From assembly GCA_947458095.1 (NCBI GenBank), contig CANGYO010000001.1, forward strand, positions 6,414 to 70,413: DNA of 64,000 nucleotides, read 5' to 3'. A program made the position numbers and the translations under genes. Below the pieces are notes generated by a model that worked only from the letters and a program-made list of their open reading frames with translations, did not search any database and was not told where the DNA came from. Within the stretch, counting starts at the first letter, position 1. Every line of letters begins with the position of its first letter. This document shows positions 1,967 through 59,601 of this stretch, in pieces. Origin of the DNA: Vampirovibrionales bacterium. Its GTDB lineage: Bacteria > Cyanobacteriota > Vampirovibrionia > Vampirovibrionales > JAJTHC01.

Positions 1967-3589
1967 TTAATGACTTGCTGGGGCGGGACTTGCCGGCGGT
2001 GCTGGCGCAGGAGTGGCCGCCGCAGGAGTGGCTTCTTCTGCAGTGGGGTCTGTTCCTGCTTGAGCCTGCCATTTATAGTATATATCTGTACTATTCACCT
2101 TGTCTAAGCCACCTATAGATCCTTCTGTAGGCGTCGGTGTCGTCGTAGGCTTAAAAGGGATTAAAGACGGTATAATGTTTAAAGAGTTGGGTTCTACATT
2201 GGAATAGGCTAATTTGTCTGCTAAAAACGTCGGTTGTATTTTTTCAAAATACCCTGCAATTTCTTGCCCGTTTTGACTACCCCCTTCTAAACGTAAAAAA
2301 CTTTTACCATTTACACATTGTAAAGTAATCGAATTAATCCATAATGTGTCGGGTAAATTTTTTTGTACCGTTGTCAACCATTTCACAATGCTGACATTAA
2401 AATCACTGTAACGTTTCAACCAAAGTGCCTTGGCATGCGCTTCAGGCGAAACATCGGGTGCTTTGTGGTTCGCAATTTTTTTAGTGACTTCATCTAGACT
2501 TAGTGTTTTACCAATGTTCATTGCTGAAAGTACACCATAGGCGACAATAACCAATGCCAAGACCAAAACATTCGTCGCAATCGCAAAAGGTAGTATCTTG
2601 GTACGGTAATCTGCCACCATCACTTCGATTTGACGTTCTTTGGGAAGCAAGTTTAAACTTTCAAATGATGCCAGTTCCTTAAACATCGACGCCCCTAAGG
2701 CTTCAACCGTACAAGGATACAAAGGCTTTTTCGCCCCTAAAGAAGCGATGGTTTCATGGTTTTGCTCAACCAACACCACTTCATCAAACTGTGCAAAGGC
2801 CGTTGCCAGTAATTCGGCAGGCACTTTAGAATTATTATGCACCACAATCGCTTCTTTACAGTCGTGAAGCAAATCGCTTAAGCCTTCAATGTCTTGCTGT
2901 AAATCATTCACAATATCAGACGAATCAATGTTTTGAGCCGAGATAGGGGCTTCAATTAAACTGGTGATATGCGCCCCTTCCAAGACCAATGTGGTGAAAT
3001 TACTTTCATTTAAAATAGAAAGCAATCGTTTTTGACCGTCATTGGCAAGCGTGCCTGTACTAATCAATCCTTTCAAAAGAGCCGTTACATTACTTTCAAC
3101 GGAACAAAGATTTATTTTCAACTGATTTAAAATAGACAGCATTTCAGTCAAAGCCGAAAGGGGATACGCTGTATATACACAGTATTCGTTTTCAGCGTCT
3201 TCCACATTTAAAAACAACCAATCTAAGGTCGGGGCTTCACGTTTAAATAAGACGGAACGTTCCGCTTCACTGACTAAAATGTTATGTAAGTCGCGTTCAT
3301 GCATACCAGGAGGCAGGCCGAGCATACGTGTATAAAAACTAGACAGCATTAAGGTCACTGGCAAATTGGGTGGAATACTCAGTTCTTGGAATAAGGATTG
3401 AACACTTTCCATGAAGTTGTCAGGCACTAAAATAGCTCGAGTCGCCAAATCAACACTGGTAATAGGAATATACCCAGCATTAATAATTTGACCAGATTGT
3501 GTGTTAATCCACACCAATTCAAGCCTTGAAAAATCGGATGAAAACGCCAAGGACACAACACCATTTTGGGGAGCAGCTAAAATCATCAT
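1967..3589 (-). CDS. pilMN: PilM-PilN fusion protein (type IV pilus inner-membrane platform)
   Basis: The 540 aa ORF has an N-terminal ~350 aa actin-like PilM-type region. A TM helix (ATNVLVLALVIVAYGVL) and a PilN-like periplasmic domain follow, ending in a Pro/Ala/Thr-rich tail. Confidence 0.55.
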   Translation of the reverse strand: MMILAAPQNGVVSLAFSSDFSRLELVWINTQSGQIINAGYIPITSVDLATRAILVPDNFMESVQSLFQELSIPPNLPVTLMLSSFYTRMLGLPPGMHERDLHNILVSEAERSVLFKREAPTLDWLFLNVEDAENEYCVYTAYPLSALTEMLSILNQLKINLCSVESNVTALLKGLISTGTLANDGQKRLLSILNESNFTTLVLEGAHITSLIEAPISAQNIDSSDIVNDLQQDIEGLSDLLHDCKEAIVVHNNSKVPAELLATAFAQFDEVVLVEQNHETIASLGAKKPLYPCTVEALGASMFKELASFESLNLLPKERQIEVMVADYRTKILPFAIATNVLVLALVIVAYGVLSAMNIGKTLSLDEVTKKIANHKAPDVSPEAHAKALWLKRYSDFNVSIVKWLTTVQKNLPDTLWINSITLQCVNGKSFLRLEGGSQNGQEIAGYFEKIQPTFLADKLAYSNVEPNSLNIIPSLIPFKPTTTPTPTEGSIGGLDKVNSTDIYYKWQAQAGTDPTAEEATPAAATPAPAPPASPAPASH

Positions 3590-7639: not shown

Positions 7640-7832
7640 GTCTAACGCTCCTTGTGGATGATTGTCTCTTATCTTACCTCAAAGAACGTTTTTGCACAAT
7701 TTTATTGTTTTGGGTGAACGTGGATTGTGGCTTGAAAGGCTTACGACTTTATGCTAGCCTAATGAAAACCTGAACTAAAAGGGTTGCTAATAAGCAACAC
7801 CCCCATTCTGTAACGAAAGGAGGTGAGGCAAA

Positions 7833-7895
7833 ATGGATCATATAGAACATCTTTCGATGTTACTAATTATCCTCCTTCTAGTGTGGAAACGTTAG
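7833..7895 (+). CDS. Candidate 20-aa hydrophobic peptide MDHIEHLSMLLIILLLVWKR (type I toxin-like small ORF)
   Basis: ATG lies 7 nt after AAAGGAGGTGA. The ORF frame and length are conserved across 4 of the 5 copies, and the C-terminal half is a single hydrophobic helix. Confidence 0.5.
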   Translation: MDHIEHLSMLLIILLLVWKR

Positions 7896-7954
7896 GAGGA
7901 TAGCTTTCAAAGGAGTTCTCAAGCCTCGCAAGCTTGGGGACTCCCCCTTTTTAT

Positions 7955-7983
7955 ATTGTGGCAAATGTCGTGAGCTTTGTCAA
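7955..7983 (-). promoter_or_regulatory. Convergent (antisense) sigma70-like promoter TTGACA-N17-CACAAT
   Basis: On the minus strand the sequence reads TTGACAaagctcacgacatttgcCACAAT. The hexamers and 17-nt spacing are conserved in all five copies while the spacer sequence differs. Confidence 0.55.
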
Positions 7984-8028
7984 GGGGGCGGTTCTATTCT
8001 TCCTCCTGATTTGGGGAGGGCAACCGCC

Positions 8029-9531
8029 TTAGCGTTTCACCTTATTGCGGATCGCCGCCCCAATTTGGAAGAGCAAGTACCCTTGAATGAGGTGTTGCAG
8101 GATGTACACGAGGTAAAACCGCTCCCCCATTTTAGTGGCGACGGTTTTAATAGCGTTTTGAATAGGTTCAACTTTATATAATATAAGTGGGAAGCTAGCA
8201 CTCAAACTAGTCCACAATGGATCCCAAAAACAATTGCCTCTATAGTAAAGAAACCCAAAACAGACCACTATGAAAAACCAAAGTAGCGGAAGCATTGCAC
8301 TTAGTCCATACGCTGATGTCCACAAGTAAAAGGTGTTCCAGCTAAACCATTTGTTTTGATAGAACTGATGCCAAAAGTGAAAGTCGTTAGACAATTGAGC
8401 ATCTCCTGCATCTAAGGCACTGACTTTTAAATAGCCGTAGGATTCTATTTTTTCGAGGGTGTCCGTGGTATTAAGTTTTTTAAAAGCTCGAAACTTTAGC
8501 CAAAACGGGAGAAACTTGAAACATTCAAGTGCTTTTTCAGAATCCCATTTGCAGAGGTAAAATCCCATGCCTGCGACGTAACTACCGCCTGTAATGGAAA
8601 CCTGTTGCATGGCAACCTTTGTAAAGACGACGTTTTTGCCGTAAAAGCCACATTCTTTAAAGTGAACCGTCACCTTTGATTCTTTTTTGAGATTACGCAC
8701 TTTAATACAGATACCACTACTATCCACTTCTATATTTTCAAATTGAACGTTGCCTGTACTTTCTTCTAAGCAATTTTCCAAGTCTACAACAAGCGAACGT
8801 TTATCTGACTCAAAACTCGTGTCTTTTATGATAATCTCGCCGTTTAATTCATTTGGTACAATTCCTAAATAATCGTGCGTGGTGGCGTGGTCAAAATTAA
8901 GTTGAGCATTTTCTAAAATTATTTCTTTAAAAGAAGTGTGCTTTTCGAAGGTGGTGTCTGCGAAATACGCTAAGCCTGAAAAGGAGGCCTTGTAAAAATC
9001 CGCCTTTCTTGAGAAGGTGGTGTTTATGAAATACGCTATGTCTGAAAAGGTGGCCCGCCAAAAATACGCATTACGTTTGAAGGCGGTGTTTGTGAAATCC
9101 GCTATGCCTGAAAAGGTGGTACACCTGAAATCCGCCCTTCTTGAGAAGTTGGTGTGTGTGAAATCCACCTCGCTTGTGAAGGTGGTGTTTGTGAAATACG
9201 CTATGCCTGAAAAGGTGGTGTGTGTGAAATACGCATTACGTGTGAAAATTGTTTTGGTTCCGAAATCACAAGCAATAAACTCTTTTTCAAAAGTGGCACT
9301 CTTGCTATTGAAGGTAAAAGGACATTCTAGGGTGTCCCAAATACCATCATCTGTTTCTATGGGCTTTTTTTCAATACCACACGCAAGTAACAATTCAGCC
9401 AAGTTAAAGTCTACTTTGACTTGGCAGTTTTCAAGGTCTAATACGCCTGAATCGAGGGCTTGACGTAACAGCTCTTCAAGGTCTTTTTTTGTGCTAATCA
9501 CACATTCAATTTGGCGTTCTTTGACGTTCAC
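8029..9531 (-). CDS. Pentapeptide-repeat protein with a C-terminal multi-TM domain
   Basis: Long tandem A(D/N)FxxTxF pentapeptide repeats (NAYFTHTTFSGIAYFTNTTFTSEVDFTHTNFSRRADFRCTTFSGIADF...) are followed by hydrophobic helices (MLPLLWFFIVVCFGFLYY...). Confidence 0.75.
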   Translation of the reverse strand: MNVKERQIECVISTKKDLEELLRQALDSGVLDLENCQVKVDFNLAELLLACGIEKKPIETDDGIWDTLECPFTFNSKSATFEKEFIACDFGTKTIFTRNAYFTHTTFSGIAYFTNTTFTSEVDFTHTNFSRRADFRCTTFSGIADFTNTAFKRNAYFWRATFSDIAYFINTTFSRKADFYKASFSGLAYFADTTFEKHTSFKEIILENAQLNFDHATTHDYLGIVPNELNGEIIIKDTSFESDKRSLVVDLENCLEESTGNVQFENIEVDSSGICIKVRNLKKESKVTVHFKECGFYGKNVVFTKVAMQQVSITGGSYVAGMGFYLCKWDSEKALECFKFLPFWLKFRAFKKLNTTDTLEKIESYGYLKVSALDAGDAQLSNDFHFWHQFYQNKWFSWNTFYLWTSAYGLSAMLPLLWFFIVVCFGFLYYRGNCFWDPLWTSLSASFPLILYKVEPIQNAIKTVATKMGERFYLVYILQHLIQGYLLFQIGAAIRNKVKR

Positions 9532-9600
9532 AGGGTCGTCCTTCTTGCGTTGGGGGTGGGTTTCCCCTAGTCTAGCATGAAAACGCTGTCCCTTGGTTCT

Positions 9601-9730
9601 GTCCCCCCTCCTAATTTTAGGAGGGGGTTAGGGGGCGGTTAAACCCTAGACTCCGTTTGTGGTTTAACCTCACCCTCGAACGTCCTTCAGACGTTCTCTT
9701 CCCTCTCCTAAAATTAGGAGAGGGGACAAG
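9601..9730. repeat. Composite palindromic element P1 (three nested hairpins), reverse complement of the 16679 element
   Basis: It contains cccccctcctaattttaggaggggg, ggttaaaccctagactccgtttgtggtttaacc, gaacgtccttcagacgttc and cccctctcctaaaattaggagagggg. Related copies are at 15140 and 16679. Confidence 0.8.
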
Positions 9731-9793
9731 AAAAAGCTGTAAGCCAATAATAAGAAACACCCCCATTCTGTAACAGAAAGGAGGTGAGCTAAA

Positions 9794-9856
9794 ATGGATA
9801 CTCGTGAAGGACTAATCTTCTTGATTATCTACCTATTAGTCTTAAAACTAAGCTAA
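9794..9856 (+). CDS. Candidate 20-aa hydrophobic peptide MDTREGLIFLIIYLLVLKLS
   Basis: It has the same RBS, frame and length as the other copies. The sequence is divergent but hydrophobicity is preserved. Confidence 0.45.
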   Translation: MDTREGLIFLIIYLLVLKLS

Positions 9857-9911
9857 TAGGCTAGCATGGAGTCTTCAAGTCTCGAACACTTGGGGACTCC
9901 CCCTTTTTTGT

Positions 9912-9940: not shown

Positions 9941-9954
9941 GGGGTTTGGCTTTA

Positions 9955-10057
9955 CTCCCTCCATTTTAAGGGGAGGGTTGGGGTGGGGAGTAATGTGTCA
10001 CGCTGGGTTTTCAAAATCCCCCCCTCTCCCTAGCCCTCTCCTCAAGGAGAGGGAACA
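9955..10057. repeat. Palindromic element P6 (a second sub-family; related copy at 50585)
   Basis: The sequence is ggctttactccctcc...ggggagggttggggtgggg...cccctctccctagccctctcctcaaggagagggaacaag. It shares its ends and core with 50585-50700. Confidence 0.65.
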
Positions 10058-12644: not shown

Positions 12645-12756
12645 CCGACACACGAAAGTCGATTCTTGACACACGAAACCCTGTTTTCTGACACACGAAA
12701 CCCGCCTTTCTGACACACGAAACCCGCCTTTCTGACACACGAAACGACGCCTTTTT
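12645..12756. repeat. Tandem array of five 22-bp direct repeats (tgacacacgaaacccgcctttc)
   Basis: The units are ccgacacacgaaagtcgattct, tgacacacgaaaccctgttttc, tgacacacgaaacccgcctttc (x2, identical) and tgacacacgaaacgacgccttttt. The array is flanked by inverted aaaggcg/cgccttt and lies between convergent proC and the RHH-like gene. Confidence 0.85.
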
Positions 12757-13191: not shown

Positions 13192-13235
13192 TTCGGGGTC
13201 TCCTTTGGTTTTTTTTGGGGGGGATGCCTTATGTT

Positions 13236-13260
13236 CCCCCTCCTAATTTTAGGAGAGGGG
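13236..13260. repeat. Single palindromic hairpin P2 (ccccctcctaattttaggagagggg)
   Basis: A perfect 9-bp stem, identical to the arms of the composite P elements. T8 and G7 homopolymer runs lie immediately adjacent. Confidence 0.7.
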
Positions 13261-13357
13261 ACACAGGCTACTATCCTAAGCATGACAACTATTTACGCCA
13301 TTGCATAGTGCGTAAAACCCACTATTTTCCACACGGCAATGTAACAATTTAAAACGC

Positions 13358-15139: not shown

Positions 15140-15267
15140 GTCCCCTCTCCTAATTTTAGGAGAGGGAAGAGAACGTCTGAAAGACGTTCGAGGGGGAGCT
15201 TAGACTCACCACGGGCATCTAGGGTTTAACCGCCCCCTAACACCCTCCTAAAATCAGGAGGGGGGAC
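15140..15267. repeat. Composite palindromic element P3
   Basis: It contains gtcccctctcctaattttaggagaggg, gaacgtctgaaagacgttc, ...tagggtttaacc... and ccctcctaaaatcaggagggg. It has the same architecture as the elements at 9601 and 16679. Confidence 0.75.
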
Positions 15268-15286
15268 AAAGCCAATTGGGTTTCGT

Positions 15287-16668: not shown

Positions 16669-16678
16669 AGAATCGCCT

Positions 16679-16808
16679 TGTCCCCTCTCCTAATTTTAGG
16701 AGAGGGAAGAGAACGTCGTTAGACGTTCGAGGGTGAGGTTAAACCTTAGACTCCGTTTGTGGGTTTAACCGCCCCCTAGCCCCCTCCTAAAATTAGGAGG
16801 GGGGACAA
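16679..16808. repeat. Composite palindromic element P5
   Basis: It contains gtcccctctcctaattttaggagaggg, gaacgtcgttagacgttc, ggttaaaccttagactccgtttgtgggtttaacc and ccctcctaaaattaggagggggg. It is the reverse complement of P1. Confidence 0.8.
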
Positions 16809-16880
16809 AACAAAAGCTACATTTGGATATTTCCCATAAAAGCTAAACACCCCCAATCTAATAGAAAGGAGGTGAGCTAA

Positions 16881-16955
16881 ATGGATAATAGTCAACAAGT
16901 GTTGATTTTAATGATTATCCTCCTTCTAGCGACAAAAACTAGGAGGATAGCATAA
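16881..16955 (+). CDS. Candidate 24-aa peptide MDNSQQVLILMIILLLATKTRRIA (a 1-nt indel extends the C-terminus)
   Basis: It uses the same RBS and frame as the other copies. A single-base difference relative to copy E removes the usual TAG and extends the ORF by 4 codons. Confidence 0.4.
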   Translation: MDNSQQVLILMIILLLATKTRRIA

Positions 16956-16998
16956 AGGAGTTCTCAAGCTTTTACGCTTGGGGACTCCCCCTTTTTAT

Positions 16999-17027
16999 AT
17001 TGTGGCAAATGTAGAAGCCTTTGTCAA
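16999..17027 (-). promoter_or_regulatory. Convergent promoter TTGACA-N17-CACAAT (copy D)
   Basis: The minus strand reads TTGACAaaggcttctacatttgcCACAAT. Confidence 0.5.
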
Positions 17028-17170
17028 GAGGGCGGCTGGTTTATAGTACCCCTGTTTGTAGACCTTGTTTATACTTGAAAGCCTTGCGATTTTATGCTAG
17101 CTTATAAAAAACCTTAAAAGGGTTGCTAATAAGCAACACCCCCAATCTAACAGAAAGGAGGTGAAGCAAA

Positions 17171-17233
17171 ATGGATCATATAGAACATCTTTCGATGTTA
17201 CTAATTATCCTCCTTCTAGTGACGAAACTCTAG
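17171..17233 (+). CDS. Candidate 20-aa hydrophobic peptide MDHIEHLSMLLIILLLVTKL
   Basis: ATG lies 7 nt after AAAGGAGGTGA. The 3' end of the ORF sits inside the anti-SD-containing hairpin. Confidence 0.5.
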   Translation: MDHIEHLSMLLIILLLVTKL

Positions 17234-17289
17234 GAGGATAGCTGAACGGAGTTCTCAAGCTTTTACGCTTGGGGACTCCCCCTTTTTAT

Positions 17290-17318
17290 ATTGTGGCAAA
17301 TGTAGAAGCTTTTGTCAA
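17290..17318 (-). promoter_or_regulatory. Convergent promoter TTGACA-N17-CACAAT (copy E)
   Basis: The minus strand reads TTGACAaaagcttctacatttgcCACAAT. Confidence 0.5.
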
Positions 17319-17433
17319 GATCTCGCCATCAATTACACATCATGCAAAAACTGTATTTTTAAGCTCACACGTTAAAAATCCGTTGAAACGTTTCTATAAT
17401 AGTAGGCATCACTAAAATGAGGAAGCCCCTGCT

Positions 17434-18824: not shown

Positions 18825-18949
18825 AAATAGCGTCTGGCGTCTTCGTTGTCGCTACTATTCTCGATGTGCTTATGTACGTTTTATGTACACCTCACACATC
18901 TGCGAGTCTAGGCTCCTAGAATCCGCCTATACGCTTTTCAATCGTTTAA
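18825..18949. repeat. Gene-3'-end repeat family 3, copy 1, flanked by 10-bp inverted repeats ttaaacgatt/aatcgtttaa
   Basis: It shares gtcgctac.attctcgatgtgcttatg...cacacatctgcgagtctaggctcctagaatccgc with 57841-57955, including a 34-bp identical block, and more loosely with 36041-36150. Confidence 0.7.
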
Positions 18950-18999
18950 ATGGTATTACAAACTGTAACAAATCTGTTATATTAAAAAAAAGTGTTGCT

Positions 19000-33806: not shown

Positions 33807-35030
33807 ATGTCATCTTCTAAAACGCCTCAACTCAAATTTTTCGTCCTGCTGATTCTACTCGCAGGGGCTGGCTTTTATGCCGTCAAGCATCCGCCTAGCC
33901 TTGGACTCGACTTAAAAGGTGGCACTCGCTTGACCCTAGAAGCCATCCCTAACGCGCAAGTGAAAGACATTACGCCTCGTGTTATGGACAGCCTTCAACT
34001 GGTGATTGAACAACGGGTCAACAAATTTGGCGTTTCTGAAGCCATTGTGCAGAAATCGGGTGAGTCTCGCTTATTGGTGGAAATCCCGGGGATTAAAGAC
34101 CCTGAAGAAGCGAAAAACCAGCTCGGCAAGGTGGGTTTGCTGGAGTTTAAGCGGAAGAAAAACGGCACTTGGGCAAACACCGATGTCACAGGGCGTGATT
34201 TAAAAGTGGCTCGTTTGGATCAAGACCCCATGGGTGGCTGGATGATCGGCTTTGAACTTACAGGCGAAGGGGCTAGAAAATTTGCGACACTCACCGCCGA
34301 TATGGCAACGCAAAAAGAACCCCTTGCCGTCTTTTTTGACGGGCAACTGGTGTCGTCTCCTTCCGTGCAGGATGCCATTTTAAGTGGTTCGGGTCAAATC
34401 ACGGGTGATTTCAGCAAAGACGAAGCCAAAACCATTGTCGATACGCTCAACGCAGGTGCCTTGCCTGTGAATGTGGAAGTCGTGGAAGAAAGTACGGTCG
34501 GTGCTTTATTAGGTGAAAACTCCTTGTCTCAAAGTTTGAAAGCAGGCATCGCTGGACTGCTCGCCGTATTGGTCTTTATGATTGGCTATTACCGCAAGTT
34601 AGGACTCGTCGCCAATGTGGGCTTGGTTGCCTATACCTTACTAAGCTATGTCGCCTTAATGCTGGTGGGCGTGACCTTTACGCTAGCAGGGATTGCAGGC
34701 TTTATTTTGTCGATCGGTATGGCGGTGGATGCGAACATCCTGATTTTTGAACGCACGAAAGAAGAACTCGCTCAAGGCAAAGCCTTTAAAAAAGCGTTGT
34801 CTTTAGGGTTTGACCGAGCATTACCGTCTATTTTAGACTCCAACATTACGACGCTCATCACCTGTGCCGTCTTGTGGGGCTTGGGGACAGGATCTGTGAA
34901 AGGCTTTGCCGTGACACTCGCATTAGGTGTTGCCATGAGTATGTTTACGGCATTGACGGTGACTCGCACGATTTTAGAATTGGCGTTAGGGGCGGAAACC
35001 CGTTCACGCATGACATTTTCAAAAGGATAA
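33807..35030 (+). CDS. secD: Protein translocase subunit SecD
   Basis: It has a signal anchor, a periplasmic domain and a C-terminal 6-TM SecD block (GIAGLLAVLVFMIGYYR...AVDANILIFERTKEE). Confidence 0.85.
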   Translation: MSSSKTPQLKFFVLLILLAGAGFYAVKHPPSLGLDLKGGTRLTLEAIPNAQVKDITPRVMDSLQLVIEQRVNKFGVSEAIVQKSGESRLLVEIPGIKDPEEAKNQLGKVGLLEFKRKKNGTWANTDVTGRDLKVARLDQDPMGGWMIGFELTGEGARKFATLTADMATQKEPLAVFFDGQLVSSPSVQDAILSGSGQITGDFSKDEAKTIVDTLNAGALPVNVEVVEESTVGALLGENSLSQSLKAGIAGLLAVLVFMIGYYRKLGLVANVGLVAYTLLSYVALMLVGVTFTLAGIAGFILSIGMAVDANILIFERTKEELAQGKAFKKALSLGFDRALPSILDSNITTLITCAVLWGLGTGSVKGFAVTLALGVAMSMFTALTVTRTILELALGAETRSRMTFSKG

Positions 35031-35036
35031 TCCGCT

Positions 35037-36029
35037 ATGACACTCATCACCAACACAGAAACCGCCACAACGGCTCAAGAGACAACCGTCGCTTCTAAAC
35101 TCAAATACTGGGTGGATATTGTCAAATATCGAGCTGTCTATTTATGGATTGCGGTCGCCATGATGGTACCGGGTCTGGTCTTTATGGGACTGAATATCGC
35201 TCAAACACCGACACATTCACCGCTGAAGCTCGGCATTGATTTTGTGGGCGGTACGTTGACCGAAATCCATACGCCCCAAACCGTGAAACAAGAAGACTTG
35301 CCCCACATCGCTCACGCCTTGGACGCCTATGAGATTGAAGATGCCGTCGTACAAATTAACACGCCGATTAAGGTCAATCAAAAAGAAGCAGGCACCGTGC
35401 TTTCCATTCGCACCAAAATGCTGGATGCTCCCCAAATCAAAACGCTCGATGCCACACTCAAAAACAACGTGGGAGATTTTCAGCTCTTACAACGTAATAC
35501 GGTCGGCCCAACGCTCGCCAGTGAACTGCTCACCAATGCCTTGTTGGCTCTAGGCTTTGCGTACTTGCTGATTACAGGTTATTTGACCTATCGCTTTCAG
35601 TTGGATTACGCCATTTGTGCCTTAGTGGCTTTATTGCACGATACCGTCATTGTGCTAGGCATCTTTGCAGGCATGGGATACTTGGCTAATGTAGCGGTGG
35701 ATAGCCTTTTCATTACAGGGATTCTAACCGTCATTGGCTTTAGTGTGCATGACACGATTGTGGTTTTTGATCGTTTGCGTGAAAATAACCGCTTGATGTT
35801 TTCGCAGAAAAAGCCGTTTTCAGAAGTGGTGAACGTGTCGATCAATCAAACCTTGGCTCGTTCGATTAACACATCCTTAACCGCTTTATTACCTTTAGCG
35901 ACGCTCTACTTCTTTGGGGGAGAAAGCACGCAGAACTTGGTGCTTTGCATGGGCTTGGGGATCATCATCGGGGCGTATTCGTCTATTGCGATTGCGTCTT
36001 CGTTGCTGTGCTGGTGGCGTGAATTATAG
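35037..36029 (+). CDS. secF: Protein translocase subunit SecF
   Basis: It lies immediately downstream of secD and has SecF TM blocks (GILTVIGFSVHDTIVVFDRLREN). Confidence 0.85.
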   Translation: MTLITNTETATTAQETTVASKLKYWVDIVKYRAVYLWIAVAMMVPGLVFMGLNIAQTPTHSPLKLGIDFVGGTLTEIHTPQTVKQEDLPHIAHALDAYEIEDAVVQINTPIKVNQKEAGTVLSIRTKMLDAPQIKTLDATLKNNVGDFQLLQRNTVGPTLASELLTNALLALGFAYLLITGYLTYRFQLDYAICALVALLHDTVIVLGIFAGMGYLANVAVDSLFITGILTVIGFSVHDTIVVFDRLRENNRLMFSQKKPFSEVVNVSINQTLARSINTSLTALLPLATLYFFGGESTQNLVLCMGLGIIIGAYSSIAIASSLLCWWREL

Positions 36030-36040
36030 CCATCTTTATA

Positions 36041-36150
36041 ATTTCCTGTACCGTGTCTATACGTTGTCGCTACGATTATTTTGTTCCGTTATGTAGGTCT
36101 GTCTACACACCCTCACAAAATAATCTAGGCTCCTCGTCTAGCCTAAGTAC
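36041..36150. repeat. Gene-3'-end repeat family 3, copy 3 (divergent)
   Basis: cctgtaccgtgtctatacgttgtcgctacgatt...cacac...tctaggctcctcgtctagcc is related to the 18841 and 57841 copies. Confidence 0.5.
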
Positions 36151-50584: not shown

Positions 50585-50700
50585 AGTGGCTTTACTCCCT
50601 CTCCCTTTGGGAGAGGGTTGGGGTGAGGCTTGCAGGATGCCCTTTATAGCTGGTGTTTCCCTCATCCTAGCCTTCTCCCAAAGGGATAAGGAACAAGGCA
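50585..50700. repeat. Palindromic element P7 (same sub-family as 9955-10057)
   Basis: ggctttactccctctccctttgggagagggttggggtgagg...ccctcatcctagccttctcccaaagggataaggaacaagg. Confidence 0.65.
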
Positions 50701-52806: not shown

Positions 52807-53821
52807 GGTGGGGGTCTCCTTCTTTAAGGGCGTGCCATAAGGTTTTTTCTGCTTCGGTGGCTAGCCCAATGAAACGGTTTTCGGGGTAGATGCGTAGTGT
52901 GTAAGCGTCCCACACGGCGACTTGCATCTGTCGCATAAGGGTGAGGACATCGGTAGATGTGGCGTGATTCGTATTGACGATAAAATTGGCGTGTAAGACA
53001 CTAACTTCCGCACCGCCGACCTTCCACGTGCCTTTTGCGCCTAAATCTTCGAGCAATTTGCCCGCACTTAGAACGACGTCTCCACCTTGAGGGGGCGTGG
53101 TGGGGTTGCGGAAGACACTGCCTCCGTTGGGTTCAATCGGGTGATGTGCTTTTCGAAACGCGATATTTCGCTCCATGAGGGCTTTGCTTTCAGAAACATC
53201 CCCTGCTTGAAAACGGCATTCCGTGGCGAGAATAATCTGTTTTTGAGAATCCACCGCACTATAGCGATAGTCATAGGCTAAATCAGATGCTTCCACCCAA
53301 TCGGCGATGCCTTTTTGAAGGTCAAATACGAAAACACGCTCCACAATGCGAGCCGTGTCCTGCCCCATGGCTCCTGCGTTCATCACGGCGGCTCCGCCCA
53401 TCGTACCGGGAATACCGATCATGTATTCGCCCCACTGAAAGCCTGCTTCGACAACCGTGTGAGCCACTTTCGCCAAATGCACGCCTGCTTCAATCAAGAA
53501 GCGTCCGTCGCCGAGGGCTTGCATGTTGGCTAACTTGCGAGTAATCAGCGTATGCCCTGCAATGCCAGCACTGGCGATTAAGGTATTGCTCCCCCAACCC
53601 AGCACATTGAGCGTGGTTTCGCCTGATTTCACCTTGGGAGCTAAATGCTGCAAGACGTCCACGGCTTCATCAAGCGTGGTGGGAAACCATGCGACATCCA
53701 TATTACCCCCAATGCGATACGTCGAATACGGCGCTGACGGCTTCTCATATTCAGGGGAAAAACTCACGGAAGCGTGTGACGACGGTGTGTCAAGCATGAG
53801 CAGATGCCTCCTCTGACTCAA
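52778..53821 (-). CDS. murB: UDP-N-acetylenolpyruvoylglucosamine reductase
   Basis: It has an FAD-binding domain and MurB motifs (GGAEVSVLHANFIVN, SVFRNP). It overlaps ddl by 29 nt and murC by 32 nt. Confidence 0.85.
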   Translation of the reverse strand: MSQRRHLLMLDTPSSHASVSFSPEYEKPSAPYSTYRIGGNMDVAWFPTTLDEAVDVLQHLAPKVKSGETTLNVLGWGSNTLIASAGIAGHTLITRKLANMQALGDGRFLIEAGVHLAKVAHTVVEAGFQWGEYMIGIPGTMGGAAVMNAGAMGQDTARIVERVFVFDLQKGIADWVEASDLAYDYRYSAVDSQKQIILATECRFQAGDVSESKALMERNIAFRKAHHPIEPNGGSVFRNPTTPPQGGDVVLSAGKLLEDLGAKGTWKVGGAEVSVLHANFIVNTNHATSTDVLTLMRQMQVAVWDAYTLRIYPENRFIGLATEAEKTLWHALKEGDPHHARRSNESL

Positions 53822-55493
53822 ACGGGATGCTTCTCAAGAGGCTCGTAATCGTGCCTGCCCCCATAGAAAGGATACAATCGCCTGCTTCTGCGGAAGCTTG
53901 CAGTTCACGTTTTAACGCCTCTACATCAGGAGCATAGGCAATCTGTTGTTGAGGGTATTTTGCTTTCAACGCCTCCACAAAATGTGGACTGTCGACGCCT
54001 GCAATCGGATCTTCAAAGGCGTGATAGGTGTCTATAATATAGACGACATCTGCCGATTGAAAGGCGTCGAGGAAGCCTTCCCACAAGGCTTGAAGGCGGG
54101 TGTATCGATGCGGTTGAAAACAGGCGATGAGCTTGCCGTTTAAGTTAAGTTCTTGCATACGTTGACGGCTGGCATCTAACGTGACACGGACTTCGGTGGG
54201 ATGATGGGCGTAATCGTCCACCCACAGGGCGTTTTTGTAGCATCCCAAGACTTCAAAACGGCGTCCCATGCCTGTAAAGGCTTGCAACCCTTGAGCGATG
54301 TCGTCAAAGGCAATCCCTAGTTGAGTCGCTACAATAGCCACCATAGAGGCATTCCAAGCATTGTGCCATCCCGGTATTTCTAGTTTAAGCATTCCAGTCG
54401 GCTCACTAACTGTGTCATTTTCAGTACTCAAATCCTCGTGTACGTTTATGTACACGTCGGATTCTCCGTGCTTCAATTCCTTGTTATTGAAGCCGTCTGA
54501 AACGCTTAAACTAGAAATACTATCGCTGTTTTCAAATCCAGCCGATTGACTCGCCTGATTGATATTTTGCCACGTTGAATCAGCATAGAGCCACAAGGAA
54601 AAGCCGTCACTTTCTTGCTGAATCAAGTAACGATCCCCTGCTTCTTCAAAGGATTCCGCACGAGTCTTGTCATCAAAAACCCATAAACGACAAACATTTT
54701 CAGGCAAGGCATGGATAGTTTTTAGCGTATTCTCACACTGTCCGTTTAAAACAACCGTCGGCGTTTGACTGGTATTAAAACTGGTGATCTGGCTAAAAAA
54801 GCGTTCAAAGGTAGTCAACAAATGCGTTAACCCGTCGGTGTAGTGATCCGCATGATCCAGCTCCAAGTTAGCGAGAATGGTGAAGGTCGGGGCATAGCGT
54901 AAAATCGTGCCGTCGCTTTCGTCCAATTCCGCCACGCAGGTCGTCGCCCCTTCTGCCAAGCGAATGTTCTGCCCCAATTGAGGCAACTTACCCCCAGCAA
55001 TGCTCATGGCTGGATAGTTCGCCTGATGCAAGACGCTGTCCATCAAGCCTGTTAGAGTCGTTTTGCCGTGCGTGCCTGTTAAGCCTATCGTGGTTTGGGT
55101 TCCCAAGCTTGGGCTGTGCATCAAGCCTTGCAAAACTTGCGATCGATGCCACAACGGCTGTTGCCGTGCGAGTGCCTGTTGAACTTCGGGATTCGCTTCG
55201 TCAATGGCGGTCGAAAGCACCACCACCGCCTGTTCTGGCACCTGTTCTGCTAAATGCCCTTGAAAGACCGTGATGCCTTTTTCTTGCAAGCGTTGCGTCG
55301 TGCTAGACACGTTCACATCACTGCCTGAAACGTCGAAACCCTTGGCTTGCATCGCCAAAGCCAAGGCACTCATGCCTGCACCACCAATGCCGACAAAGTG
55401 AAACGGTGGACGTGTTTTTAGCACACCGTCTAGTCGCAAGGCATCGAGGGGGTTAAGGCTTTTTTCAAGTGTTATGCTATCAACAAGGGTCAT
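53790..55493 (-). CDS. murC: UDP-N-acetylmuramate--L-alanine ligase, carrying an in-frame insertion of about 45-50 aa
   Basis: It has a Mur-ligase P-loop (GTHGKTTLTG) and the C-terminal ...LEIPGWHNAWNA...DDYAHHPTEV. At 567 aa it is about 70 aa longer than typical MurC, and the extra segment maps to the TIR-bearing element at 54373-54521. Confidence 0.85.
   Translation of the reverse strand: MTLVDSITLEKSLNPLDALRLDGVLKTRPPFHFVGIGGAGMSALALAMQAKGFDVSGSDVNVSSTTQRLQEKGITVFQGHLAEQVPEQAVVVLSTAIDEANPEVQQALARQQPLWHRSQVLQGLMHSPSLGTQTTIGLTGTHGKTTLTGLMDSVLHQANYPAMSIAGGKLPQLGQNIRLAEGATTCVAELDESDGTILRYAPTFTILANLELDHADHYTDGLTHLLTTFERFFSQITSFNTSQTPTVVLNGQCENTLKTIHALPENVCRLWVFDDKTRAESFEEAGDRYLIQQESDGFSLWLYADSTWQNINQASQSAGFENSDSISSLSVSDGFNNKELKHGESDVYINVHEDLSTENDTVSEPTGMLKLEIPGWHNAWNASMVAIVATQLGIAFDDIAQGLQAFTGMGRRFEVLGCYKNALWVDDYAHHPTEVRVTLDASRQRMQELNLNGKLIACFQPHRYTRLQALWEGFLDAFQSADVVYIIDTYHAFEDPIAGVDSPHFVEALKAKYPQQQIAYAPDVEALKRELQASAEAGDCILSMGAGTITSLLRSIPFESEEASAHA
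54373..54521. mobile_element. MITE-like element (~149 bp) with 17/18-bp terminal inverted repeats, inserted in-frame within murC
   Basis: The left end is ggtatttctagtttaagc and the right end is gcttaaactagaaatact. Internal hairpins are cgtgtac-gtttat-gtacacg and cttcaat-N8-attgaag. The gtacgtttatgtacac core resembles repeat family 3. Confidence 0.6.
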
Positions 55494-57840: not shown

Positions 57841-57955
57841 CCTACAGTGTCTATACTTTGTCGCTACGATTCTCGATGTGCTTATGGTCGTCTCTGTAAA
57901 CTTCACACATCTGCGAGTCTAGGCTCCTAGAATCCGCTTATGCGCTATTCAAACT
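57841..57955. repeat. Gene-3'-end repeat family 3, copy 2
   Basis: cctacagtgtctatactttgtcgctacgattctcgatgtgcttatg...cacacatctgcgagtctaggctcctagaatccgc is near-identical to the 18841 copy over its conserved blocks. Confidence 0.7.
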
Positions 57956-57966
57956 GTGAACAGGTA

Positions 57967-59601
57967 TTAATGACCCATCATGGCTAGCGGAGGCGCCTCA
58001 ATATCTAACGACTCTAACGCCACAGGATCCTTCATAATGCTGTTGTGCATGCCGTAAGTGAAGTAAATCGCCAAGCCAATCGCCAACGCCACAAGGGTAA
58101 GGAACCACGCCGAAGACGACAGGCTCATCATCAACCAAAGGCACCCTGCCACGCCCAAAAGGGGAATGGTGATGCCGAAGGGGACTCGGAAGGGACGTTT
58201 GGCTTCAGGCATGGTAAAACGTAAAATCACCACACCCACGCAGGCCATGAGGAACACAAACAACGTGCCTAAGCTTGCGATATGCGACACCAACGAAATC
58301 GGCAATAAGGCGGCTCCTAAAGCACCGATACCTGCCACAATCCACGTCGCAGCCAGCGGTACACCCATGTGGGGGTCCATTTTTTTCAAGAAAGCAGGTA
58401 AAAGACGGTCTCGGGCAATGGAATAGACGACTCGCACAGTCGCCATTTGCATGATGAGCATGACTGAGCTAATGCCGATGACTTCGCCAATCACCACGAG
58501 CAGGTCGGCACCTGGCACTTTCATGGCGGTCATGGTTTGAGCCACCGCTGCGGTGCGGTGAATGGATTCAATCGGATTCACTGCTGTGACCACAACCGTC
58601 ACCAAAATATACAAAACGGTACAAATTAAGAGCGATCCCAAAATGCCAATGGGCATGTCTTTCTGCGGATCTTTCGCTTCTTCGGCGGAACAGGCGAGGG
58701 CGTCAAAGCCGACGTAGGCAAAGAACATCAACGCCGCCCCTTTAATGATGCCGTCATTGCCAAAGGGAGCAAACGTTTTCCAGCCTTCAGCGAACCAATG
58801 CTTGGGCAGTAAATCAGGGTTGCTAAACAAGAACCAGCCCCCGATCGCTAAGAAAAAGAGGATAATGCCGATTTTGGTATAGACCATCGCCGTGGCGAGC
58901 TTGGCGTTTTCTTCCACGCCTTTGGTCAACAACCACGCACAAAAAAGCAGTCCCACCAAAGGGAAAATGTCAAAACTATGGTTGATGACGAGCGTCAAAA
59001 TATCGGGGGAACCAGGTAGTGTGAAGGGTATCTTGCTTGTAGCGACCGACGCTTCATGGAGGGGGATCTTCTGCCCTTTTTCAAGCACGGTAAAGGTGGA
59101 TGTATTCAACCAAGTCGGCACACCGACGGCTAAAGCAGGGTTATGAAAAAGATTCGCCAAGGCTTCGCCAAAGATTTTGACGCCATATAAAATGGTTTTA
59201 CCCCAGCCTTGGGCAATACACATGTTGCCCGCCAAGTATTCCACCACGAGCAACCAGCCCACGATCCATGCCACGAACTCGCCTAGGGCGATGAACATGT
59301 AGGAGTAGGCGGATCCTGAAATGGGAATCAACGTCGAAAGTTCGCTGTAAGACAAGGCACAAAAGACGCAAATTAAGCCTGAAATCAAGAAGGAAATGAC
59401 CAAAGCAGGCCCTGCATTGTCGGCCGCCCCTTGCCCTGTAAGGACGAAAATCCCTGTGCCGATCATGGCGGAAACGCCGAAGACGATGAGATCTTTTGCG
59501 GTAAGGGTGCGTTTTAAGCCTGCGTCATCCGCTTGATGTTCAGGCAGGGGGCGGGATCGGGTGAGGCTGTCCAACAAGGAAGGAATAGAGGGCATCAACA
59601 C
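57967..59601 (-). CDS. APC-superfamily amino acid permease
   Basis: The 544 aa ORF has about 12-14 TM helices and APC-type N-terminal motifs (LKRTLTAKDLIVFGVSAMIGTGIFVLTG). Confidence 0.8.
   Translation of the reverse strand: MLMPSIPSLLDSLTRSRPLPEHQADDAGLKRTLTAKDLIVFGVSAMIGTGIFVLTGQGAADNAGPALVISFLISGLICVFCALSYSELSTLIPISGSAYSYMFIALGEFVAWIVGWLLVVEYLAGNMCIAQGWGKTILYGVKIFGEALANLFHNPALAVGVPTWLNTSTFTVLEKGQKIPLHEASVATSKIPFTLPGSPDILTLVINHSFDIFPLVGLLFCAWLLTKGVEENAKLATAMVYTKIGIILFFLAIGGWFLFSNPDLLPKHWFAEGWKTFAPFGNDGIIKGAALMFFAYVGFDALACSAEEAKDPQKDMPIGILGSLLICTVLYILVTVVVTAVNPIESIHRTAAVAQTMTAMKVPGADLLVVIGEVIGISSVMLIMQMATVRVVYSIARDRLLPAFLKKMDPHMGVPLAATWIVAGIGALGAALLPISLVSHIASLGTLFVFLMACVGVVILRFTMPEAKRPFRVPFGITIPLLGVAGCLWLMMSLSSSAWFLTLVALAIGLAIYFTYGMHNSIMKDPVALESLDIEAPPLAMMGH

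Follow-up and report, generated by a model that had tools for sequence, protein, structure and literature searches.

The 64-kb window considered here, which is the whole stretch of DNA analysed from a Vampirovibrionales bacterium (contig CANGYO010000001.1), carries within the essential gene murC a long inverted repeat that is translated in frame, and the locus raises the question of whether this repeat was brought in by a mobile element or was made where it stands. The initial annotation had regarded it as a MITE (miniature inverted-repeat transposable element) with terminal inverted repeats (TIRs) of 17/18 bp, inserted in frame and drawn from a family with intergenic copies. That a palindromic insertion lies in frame in murC is borne out by the analysis, and its identity as a MITE is not: one of the 'TIRs' is native coding sequence, the insertion has no target-site duplication, and no second copy was found in the sequence sets searched. 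The single-copy coding quasi-palindrome was probably made in place, by an inverted duplication through strand switching together with ~85 nucleotides (nt) of filler, rather than transposed.

Origin of the two arms of the palindrome

The complete quasi-palindrome spans 147 nt (54374..54520, no strand assigned) of murC (53790..55493, minus strand), and consists of an outer stem, a poorly paired middle and a central hairpin, as recovered by the repeat search and by RNA and DNA folds. The inverted repeat described previously is present, with GGTATTTCTAGTTTAAGC at 54373-54390 and a 17/18 reverse complement at 54504-54521, and these are the only two matches of the 18-mer GGTATTTCTAGTTTAAGC in the window at up to 3 mismatches (0.03 expected; 0/100 shuffles reach 2). 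It is also longer than first reported, because arms of 30 nt (54374-54403 and 54491-54520) are 90% identical and can be extended to 38 nt (33/38 with one gap). Both of the internal hairpins that had been proposed exist. The central hairpin, GAATCCGACGTGTAC-ATAAAC-GTACACGAGGATTTG (54429..54464, no strand), has 13 bp, is seen in the folds and includes the innermost pairing of the palindrome, GTGTAC..GTACAC at 54438-54455; no source sequence was found for it in the gene and 500 nt to either side of it, or elsewhere in the window. The nested hairpin, GCTTCAAT-N8-ATTGAAGC (54470..54493, no strand), has 8 bp, forms in the DNA fold and has its gene-5′ arm inside the inverted-copy arm described below. 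The whole element folds into a single long hairpin (RNA free energy -70 kcal/mol, z = -11.0; DNA z = -8.7), and in the sense RNA G-U pairing accommodates two of the three mismatches of the 30-nt arms. The element gave no signal in scans for Rfam families, promoters and terminators.

The arm nearer to the 3′ end of the gene (54374..54410, minus strand) encodes residues V362-P374, VSEPTGMLKLEIP, and the same codons are found in two murC alleles that have no insert, L058 and L061. The exact 17-mer GTATTTCTAGTTTAAGC has 17 scattered matches in unrelated taxa among 185,579 species-representative genomes, and exactly one match in each of two Vampirovibrionales genomes, in both cases within the insert-less murC (L058 and L061). 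At the site, these two alleles read ...WERLSG/ENDTVSEPTGMLKLEIPG; in gene orientation, L058 has TGG GAG CGT TTA AGC GGT | GAA AAT GAC ACA GTT AGT GAG CCG ACT GGA ATG CTT AAA CTA GAA ATA CCT, which is translated as WERLSG ENDTVSEPTGMLKLEIP, and the 50 nt at 54373-54422 of the window are identical to L058. At the same place, the homologous stretches are ...GRLQLSIPG and ...PLRLSIPG (RLQLSIP and LRLSIP) in L002 and L003, which also lack the insert and are more distant. L058 and L061 keep the same arm and L002 and L003 carry its homologue, which shows the gene-3′ arm to be native murC sequence; it codes for the strand that runs into the conserved PGxHN motif, and no element supplied it. An exceptional cross-lineage conservation of this native arm was also considered and was dropped, as its 51-nt identical run is merely the third longest in the gene.

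The other arm (54483..54520, minus strand; residues 325-337, translated as SISSLSVSDGFNN) aligns with the reverse complement of the insert-less L058 gene at 33/38 positions with one gap. The local-alignment score of 26 was reached by none of 300 shuffles (9.4 +/- 1.2, maximum 14), and the native arm is the sole significant match when the insert is compared with the window by BLAST (E = 1e-4). These alignments identify the gene-5′ arm as the native stretch copied in inverted orientation; the copy lies ~70 nt upstream of its source, within the in-frame insertion of 126-132 nt. Over the 38-nt arm, the new sequence is thus the reverse complement of nearby older sequence, as expected of a template switch. 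Dating of the inverted copy from the divergence of the arms against four-fold-site distances was too imprecise to distinguish a gain after the split of the lineages from a gain followed by loss.

The non-native inserted DNA common to the window and to the insert-bearing alleles L001 and L065 was delimited by codon alignments to 54423..54542 (minus strand; approximately residues 319-357), and is absent from L058, L061, L002 and L003. It has 120 nt in the window; in L001, measured from GGTGA| up to |AAATGAC, it has 126. Compared with L058, L001 has 126 extra nt and the window has 132, the upstream 27-nt stretch of the window having diverged and gained 6 nt. This strongly diverged, window-specific stretch just upstream of the insert (54543..54569, minus strand) encodes QNINQASQS, against ERLG-G-E-P in the other alleles, has 6 additional nt and includes a direct repeat, TCAATC..TCAATC. 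In the insert-less L058, the corresponding region forms a weak hairpin that uses the same native stretch (z = -2.96).

A direct-inverted-direct triplication was tried as a fuller account of the insert and was rejected, as the likeness of GAGCCAGCTGGA-TTTAAA to GAGCCGACTGGAATGCTTAAA and that of HEDLST to WERLSG fail shuffle tests. What is left of it is a hint, the statistically unsupported 12/14 agreement between GAGCCAGCTGGA, upstream of the inverted arm in L001, and the native GAGCCGACTGGA. The insert core has no exact match in viral contigs, and an exhaustive HMMER search of 1.84 billion protein representatives with the insert peptide detected no relative, the one match being a chance match to a low-complexity repeat protein (E = 5e-4).

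The added loop of MurC and the history of its alleles

The gene that harbors the palindrome encodes UDP-N-acetylmuramate--L-alanine ligase and is followed by murB and ddl, all on the minus strand. The Pfam domains Mur_ligase, Mur_ligase_M and Mur_ligase_C were found on P0001, a protein identical to the MurC of the window, and the closest homologues are MurC proteins of Vampirovibrionales and Melainabacteria. A PDB sequence search with the window protein returned MurC entries (E = 2e-71), and its AlphaFold2 model (mean predicted local distance difference test score, pLDDT, 89.3) matched 1p31 and 1p3d in Foldseek with template-modelling (TM) scores of 0.88-0.90, the score for Haemophilus influenzae MurC (1p3d) being 0.90. 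With three Mur ligase domains, the invariant GTHGKT, DESD and PGxHN motifs and the MurC fold, the 567-amino acid (aa) open reading frame (ORF) is MurC.

As proposed earlier to explain its length, the frame reads through the element without interruption, and close relatives without the insert have a MurC of 523 aa. Only the actual frame and one antisense frame, out of six, are open over the length of the palindrome. The claim that a polar loop is added directly before the conserved PGxHN block of an essential enzyme is likewise supported, as the turn preceding PGxHN has 64-66 residues in P0001 and P0002 and 14-22 in the 64 other proteins of an alignment of 66 MurC sequences. Among MurC homologues, the extra segment was found only in P0001 and the P0002 cluster and is lacking in P0003, P0004 and P0005, of which P0003 (encoded by L061, which was recovered through the 17-mer genome scan) is 90% identical to the window MurC over the aligned residues. 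This agrees with the suggestion that the insertion is lineage-specific, the relatives that lack the second arm lacking the segment as well. Apart from the chain termini, pLDDT values below 50 are confined to residues 321-363 of the model, and the ~44 added residues are accordingly modelled as a disordered loop that would extend from the turn of the beta-hairpin just before PGxHN. A metagenome scan with P0003 returned nothing but distant murC genes (at most 56% identity).

Two further insert-bearing alleles, L064 and L065, were obtained by protein-cluster look-up, and together with L001 they bear on the manner in which the insert has been inherited. By identity over the whole of murC, the window groups with L061 and L058 (87-89%) and L001 groups with L002 (92%), yet the insert is present in the window and L001 and absent from their respective nearest relatives. 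Sliding-window identities, alignments and four-fold-site distances delimit a patch of 195 nt (54348..54542, minus strand), comprising the insert and ~75 nt of downstream native sequence that includes PGWHNA, which three murC backgrounds, diverged elsewhere, share at 97-99% identity. L001 and L002 are ~98% identical over most of the gene and 64-84% identical in a ~400-nt patch around the insert, and in that patch the identity between L001 and the window rises to 97%. In L065, which is 97.5% L002-like, the patch with the insert measures only ~230 nt. The four-fold-site distance is 0.53 between the window and L001 and 0.31 between the window and L058, whereas only 1-3 of the 126 nt of the insert vary from one background to another. 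Recombination would account for the distribution of the insert across the groups, and these comparisons indicate a recent transfer of the patch with the insert between diverged lineages, through short-patch homologous recombination.

The palindrome also appears to have been remodelled after its formation. The natural allele L064 (protein P0124), whose gene is 99.0% identical to L001, lacks 45 nt in frame at the palindrome centre (54435..54479, minus strand), between AAG|GA and GAG|GA, and the junctions share the 4-nt microhomology AGGA. By this comparison of alleles, the palindrome is prone to loss of its centre, as a DNA hairpin would be expected to be. Exactly where the insertion lies, L058 (region 2171-2260, minus strand) has 18 nt, corresponding approximately to ENDTVS, that are absent from L002, L003 and most MurC relatives; L061 has the same 18 nt. 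They may mark either a repeated indel hotspot or the remnant of a partly deleted insert.

In addition, an insert-less murC of the P0003 type appears split into P0125 (111 aa) and P0135 (361 aa) on one JGI contig of 64,846 nt. This split is likely to reflect a frameshift, an assembly error or a pseudogene, and is unrelated to the palindrome.

Probable formation in place and the competing explanations

Formation of the palindrome in place would start with a strand-switching error, that is, a template switch or fold-back priming, in which the opposite strand of adjacent coding sequence was copied, and a weak pre-existing hairpin such as that of the insert-less L058 possibly seeded the switch. The ~85 nt of filler would have arrived with the inverted copy or have built up through further small fold-back events, the latter course being considered because the nested hairpins point that way. 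Because murC is essential, only versions that were a multiple of 3 nt long, free of stop codons and located in a tolerant surface loop would have been retained. The allele would then have spread between lineages through short-patch homologous recombination, and the palindrome would afterwards have been unstable as DNA. This model requires no function, the insert being regarded as a passenger polymorphism that is tolerated. Creation and extension of hairpin stems by template switching are documented (PMC8794818), in coding sequences (PMC8604942) and in Escherichia coli (PMC7202029).

Several points weigh against formation in place. No match to the 26 nt upstream of the inverted copy, or to the 61 nt downstream of it, was obtained in the gene with 500 nt on either side or in the window (p = 0.18-0.9). 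Because these upstream and inner parts have no local source, so that only ~38 of ~126 inserted nt are locally traceable, one clean template switch is insufficient for the whole insert. The arms differ by 4 substitutions in 37 positions and by one indel, which means that the event is not recent or that the copy was imperfect, and the 3-nt microhomology (TGA) found at both junctions of the insert in L001 is not informative. The direction of change could also be the reverse of that assumed, the 18 nt of L058 and L061 being in that case a remnant of a partly deleted insert and not the ancestral state. The occurrence of the patch on three backgrounds could also reflect selection. Finally, the search for copies in the host genome spans the 64-kb window, the host genome being absent from the genome scan.

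The reading of the element as a MITE, or as a non-autonomous transposon resembling the Rickettsia palindromic elements (RPEs), with its own 17/18-bp TIRs and kinship to repeat family 3 of the window, draws on real similarities: like RPEs and in-frame bacterial MITEs (PMC10969869, PMC5896051), the murC element is ~150 nt long, forms a long hairpin, leaves the frame of a housekeeping gene open and adds a surface segment to the protein, and dispersed palindromic repeats do occur in this genome. In such families, however, the copies are multiple and both ends belong to the element, whereas the murC insert is single, has one end supplied by the host gene and lacks a target-site duplication. If both TIRs lay within the inserted DNA, neither would be expected at an empty site, yet L058 and L061 still hold one of them. 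The flanks, ...CAGCGAT|arm and arm|CGGGATG, contain no direct repeat next to the inverted repeat, and the sole flanking repeats are the TGA that borders the insert of L001 and a GAGCCNNCTGGA likeness (12/14) that does not abut the arms. No further copy with the same TIRs was found in the window, none of the insert was found there or in the flanks of related loci, and in the two related genomes scanned whole with the 17-mer the native murC arm is the sole match; the peptide likewise has no second occurrence among the 1.84e9 protein representatives. The window shows no autonomous insertion sequence whose termini match. Among the same protein representatives, neither RPE homology of the insert peptide nor its recurrence in unrelated ORFs was seen, and the host is Vampirovibrionales-like and not Rickettsia.

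The proposed link to repeat family 3, from which a single mobile family supplying intergenic and intragenic copies had been suggested, is at chance level. The core GTACGTTTATGTACAC, which had been thought common to both, has no other copy in the window at up to 3 mismatches. An 11-mer, or 19/21 positions with one gap, is in common with the repeat at 18877, but this site matches the core only with an indel, the family-3 copy at 57858 is without the motif, and when the core is aligned locally, with gaps, to the remainder of the window, the score is 15-16, against 14.1 +/- 1.6 for shuffles, 15% of which reach this level. The real repeat families of the window have nothing in common with the murC insert, and since genuine dispersed palindromic repeats are visible in the same 64 kb, a real family of the insert would probably be visible too. 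The MITE reading already fails on three defining points and is very improbable. What overturns it is not the sharing of the segment by relatives, which the initial annotation had named as decisive; as far as the allele comparison goes, it is the origin of the arms.

The main rival of formation in place is a two-stage origin, in which a foreign or distant hairpin core of ~61 nt, possibly with the upstream 26 nt, was inserted first and the imperfect arms then served for template switching, which lengthened the stem outwards as the native flank was copied into the insert. Neither the core nor the upstream part has a local source, the GC content of the insert is 42% against 50% for murC, and extension and homogenisation of arms by template switching are documented (PMC8604942, PMC13100816). 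On the other hand, none of the sequence sets searched contains a donor, a GC difference over 126 nt is weak evidence, and two events are required instead of one class of event, so that this origin is possible but rather unlikely. A selected function, exerted by an mRNA structure acting on the murC-murB-ddl transcript or by a loop that changes the regulation or interactions of MurC, would explain the spread of an identical patch on three diverged backgrounds, and the extreme stability of the structure and the G-U pairing noted above are in keeping with it. It is nevertheless improbable, as there are no compensatory changes, the sole in-stem substitution (TCC to TCG in L001) breaks a pair, L064 has lost the central hairpin and 15 residues with its ORF still intact, the Rfam, promoter and terminator scans were silent, the loop is modelled as disordered, and close relatives manage without the insert. 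Selected function thus lacks support, and the repeated introgression keeps it under consideration at a low level. In a related possibility, to which a similarly small chance is given, the cassette may drive its own spread, through hairpin-induced breaks and gene conversion from insert-bearing DNA, or be positively selected via the MurC surface loop or the mRNA structure; either would account for a 97-99% identical patch on backgrounds ~0.5 substitutions per four-fold site apart. More remotely, the cassette could be a non-autonomous element directed to murC by a complement of the target that it carries. Inverted junctions are a recognised type of assembly or amplification artefact, such as the inverted chimera, but the insert recurs in six or more contigs for P0001 that were assembled independently, and three diverged alleles of other samples carry it too, with substitutions and one deletion that keeps the frame; the reading frame is intact every time, which leaves an artefact a negligible prospect.

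Among known processes, template-switch mutations, also described as quasi-palindrome-associated, resemble the murC case in that the inverted copy adjoins its source, a long stem results, a weak hairpin, possibly a seed of the switch, is present in the putatively ancestral-type allele, and the change falls in coding DNA and alters the protein. They differ from it in mostly involving a few to tens of nt and replacing sequence, whereas murC has a net gain of 126-132 nt, of which ~38 are traceable. Inverted duplications and triplications can also result from errors of replication. Tandem inversion duplications in Salmonella, reportedly the subject of work by Kugelberg et al. in Genetics in 2010, are one example. 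Origin-dependent inverted-repeat amplification (PMC4689423) is another. A direct-inverted-direct layout of this type is hinted at in murC by the unsupported agreement of GAGCCAGCTGGA with GAGCCGACTGGA, and in both cases a palindromic junction is later remodelled by deletion, as in the loss of the centre in L064; such duplications and triplications, however, extend over kb to Mb and are unstable intermediates under selection, whereas the murC repeat measures ~0.15 kb, is fixed in lineages and is translated. The 'coding palindromes' of nematomorph mitochondria (PMC6649704) share with murC a long inverted repeat in a functional protein gene with both arms translated in one frame. Those palindromes are numerous and perfect and both of their arms encode conserved regions; murC has one imperfect repeat, from which one arm yields conserved protein and the other is predicted to yield a disordered loop.

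One stretch of DNA is translated both ways within MurC, forwards as VSEPTGMLKLEIP and, as the inverted copy, as SISSLSVSDGFNN, which makes the gene a small example of new protein sequence derived from a gene's own antisense. If the palindrome was formed in place, its alleles are a natural record of strand switching that added ~40 residues to an essential enzyme, of decay by centre deletion and of short-patch transfer between lineages. The locus also calls for caution in annotation, because a clean TIR combined with in-frame readthrough mimics a MITE, and it is the comparison with an empty site that exposes one 'TIR' as host coding sequence. It represents no new class of system and is a curiosity with no evidence of function.

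Other repeats of the window

Repeat family 3 is a structured intergenic repeat of ~110 nt with copies at 18846-18958 and 57858-57969 and a partial copy at 36025-36077. The copies are 85-91% identical outside a variable loop of ~20 nt between GATGTG and CACATC, and a comparison with Rfam gave nothing at the gathering threshold. A genuine MITE-like family does exist in the window: its intergenic palindromic element measures ~130 nt, has TIRs of 27-29 nt, GTCCCC(Y)CTCCTAATTTTAGGAG(R)GGG, and bears no relation to the murC insert; its three full copies (9600-9728, 15140-15275 and 16678-16808) and one partial copy (13233-13270) all lie in these 64 kb.

Four intergenic modules of ~200 nt (7776-7985, 9752-9908, 16840-17029 and 17115-17320) are 64-97% identical, and each combines a GGAGGTGA...ATG start context with a terminator-like hairpin, GGGGACTCCCC-TTTTT; they may constitute a family of small genes or small RNAs. 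In the ORF at 33807-35030, a 16-nt inverted repeat (94%) occupies 34772-34787 and 34899-34914 with a spacer of 111 nt, which is by estimate about the chance expectation for 64 kb; it does not constitute another murC-type coding palindrome. Coding tandem repeats with a period of 33/66 nt (8948-9246) lie inside a 500-aa ORF (8029-9531, minus strand), and an intergenic tandem array at 12667-12745 has a 22-nt period, TGACACACGAAACCC(N7), with four TGACACACGAAAC units. A G-rich palindromic repeat, GGCTTTACTCCCTC...GAGGGTTGGGGTG, occurs at 50587-50699 and 9947-9988, and at the first of these sites an inverted repeat with 40-nt arms spans 50589-50699.

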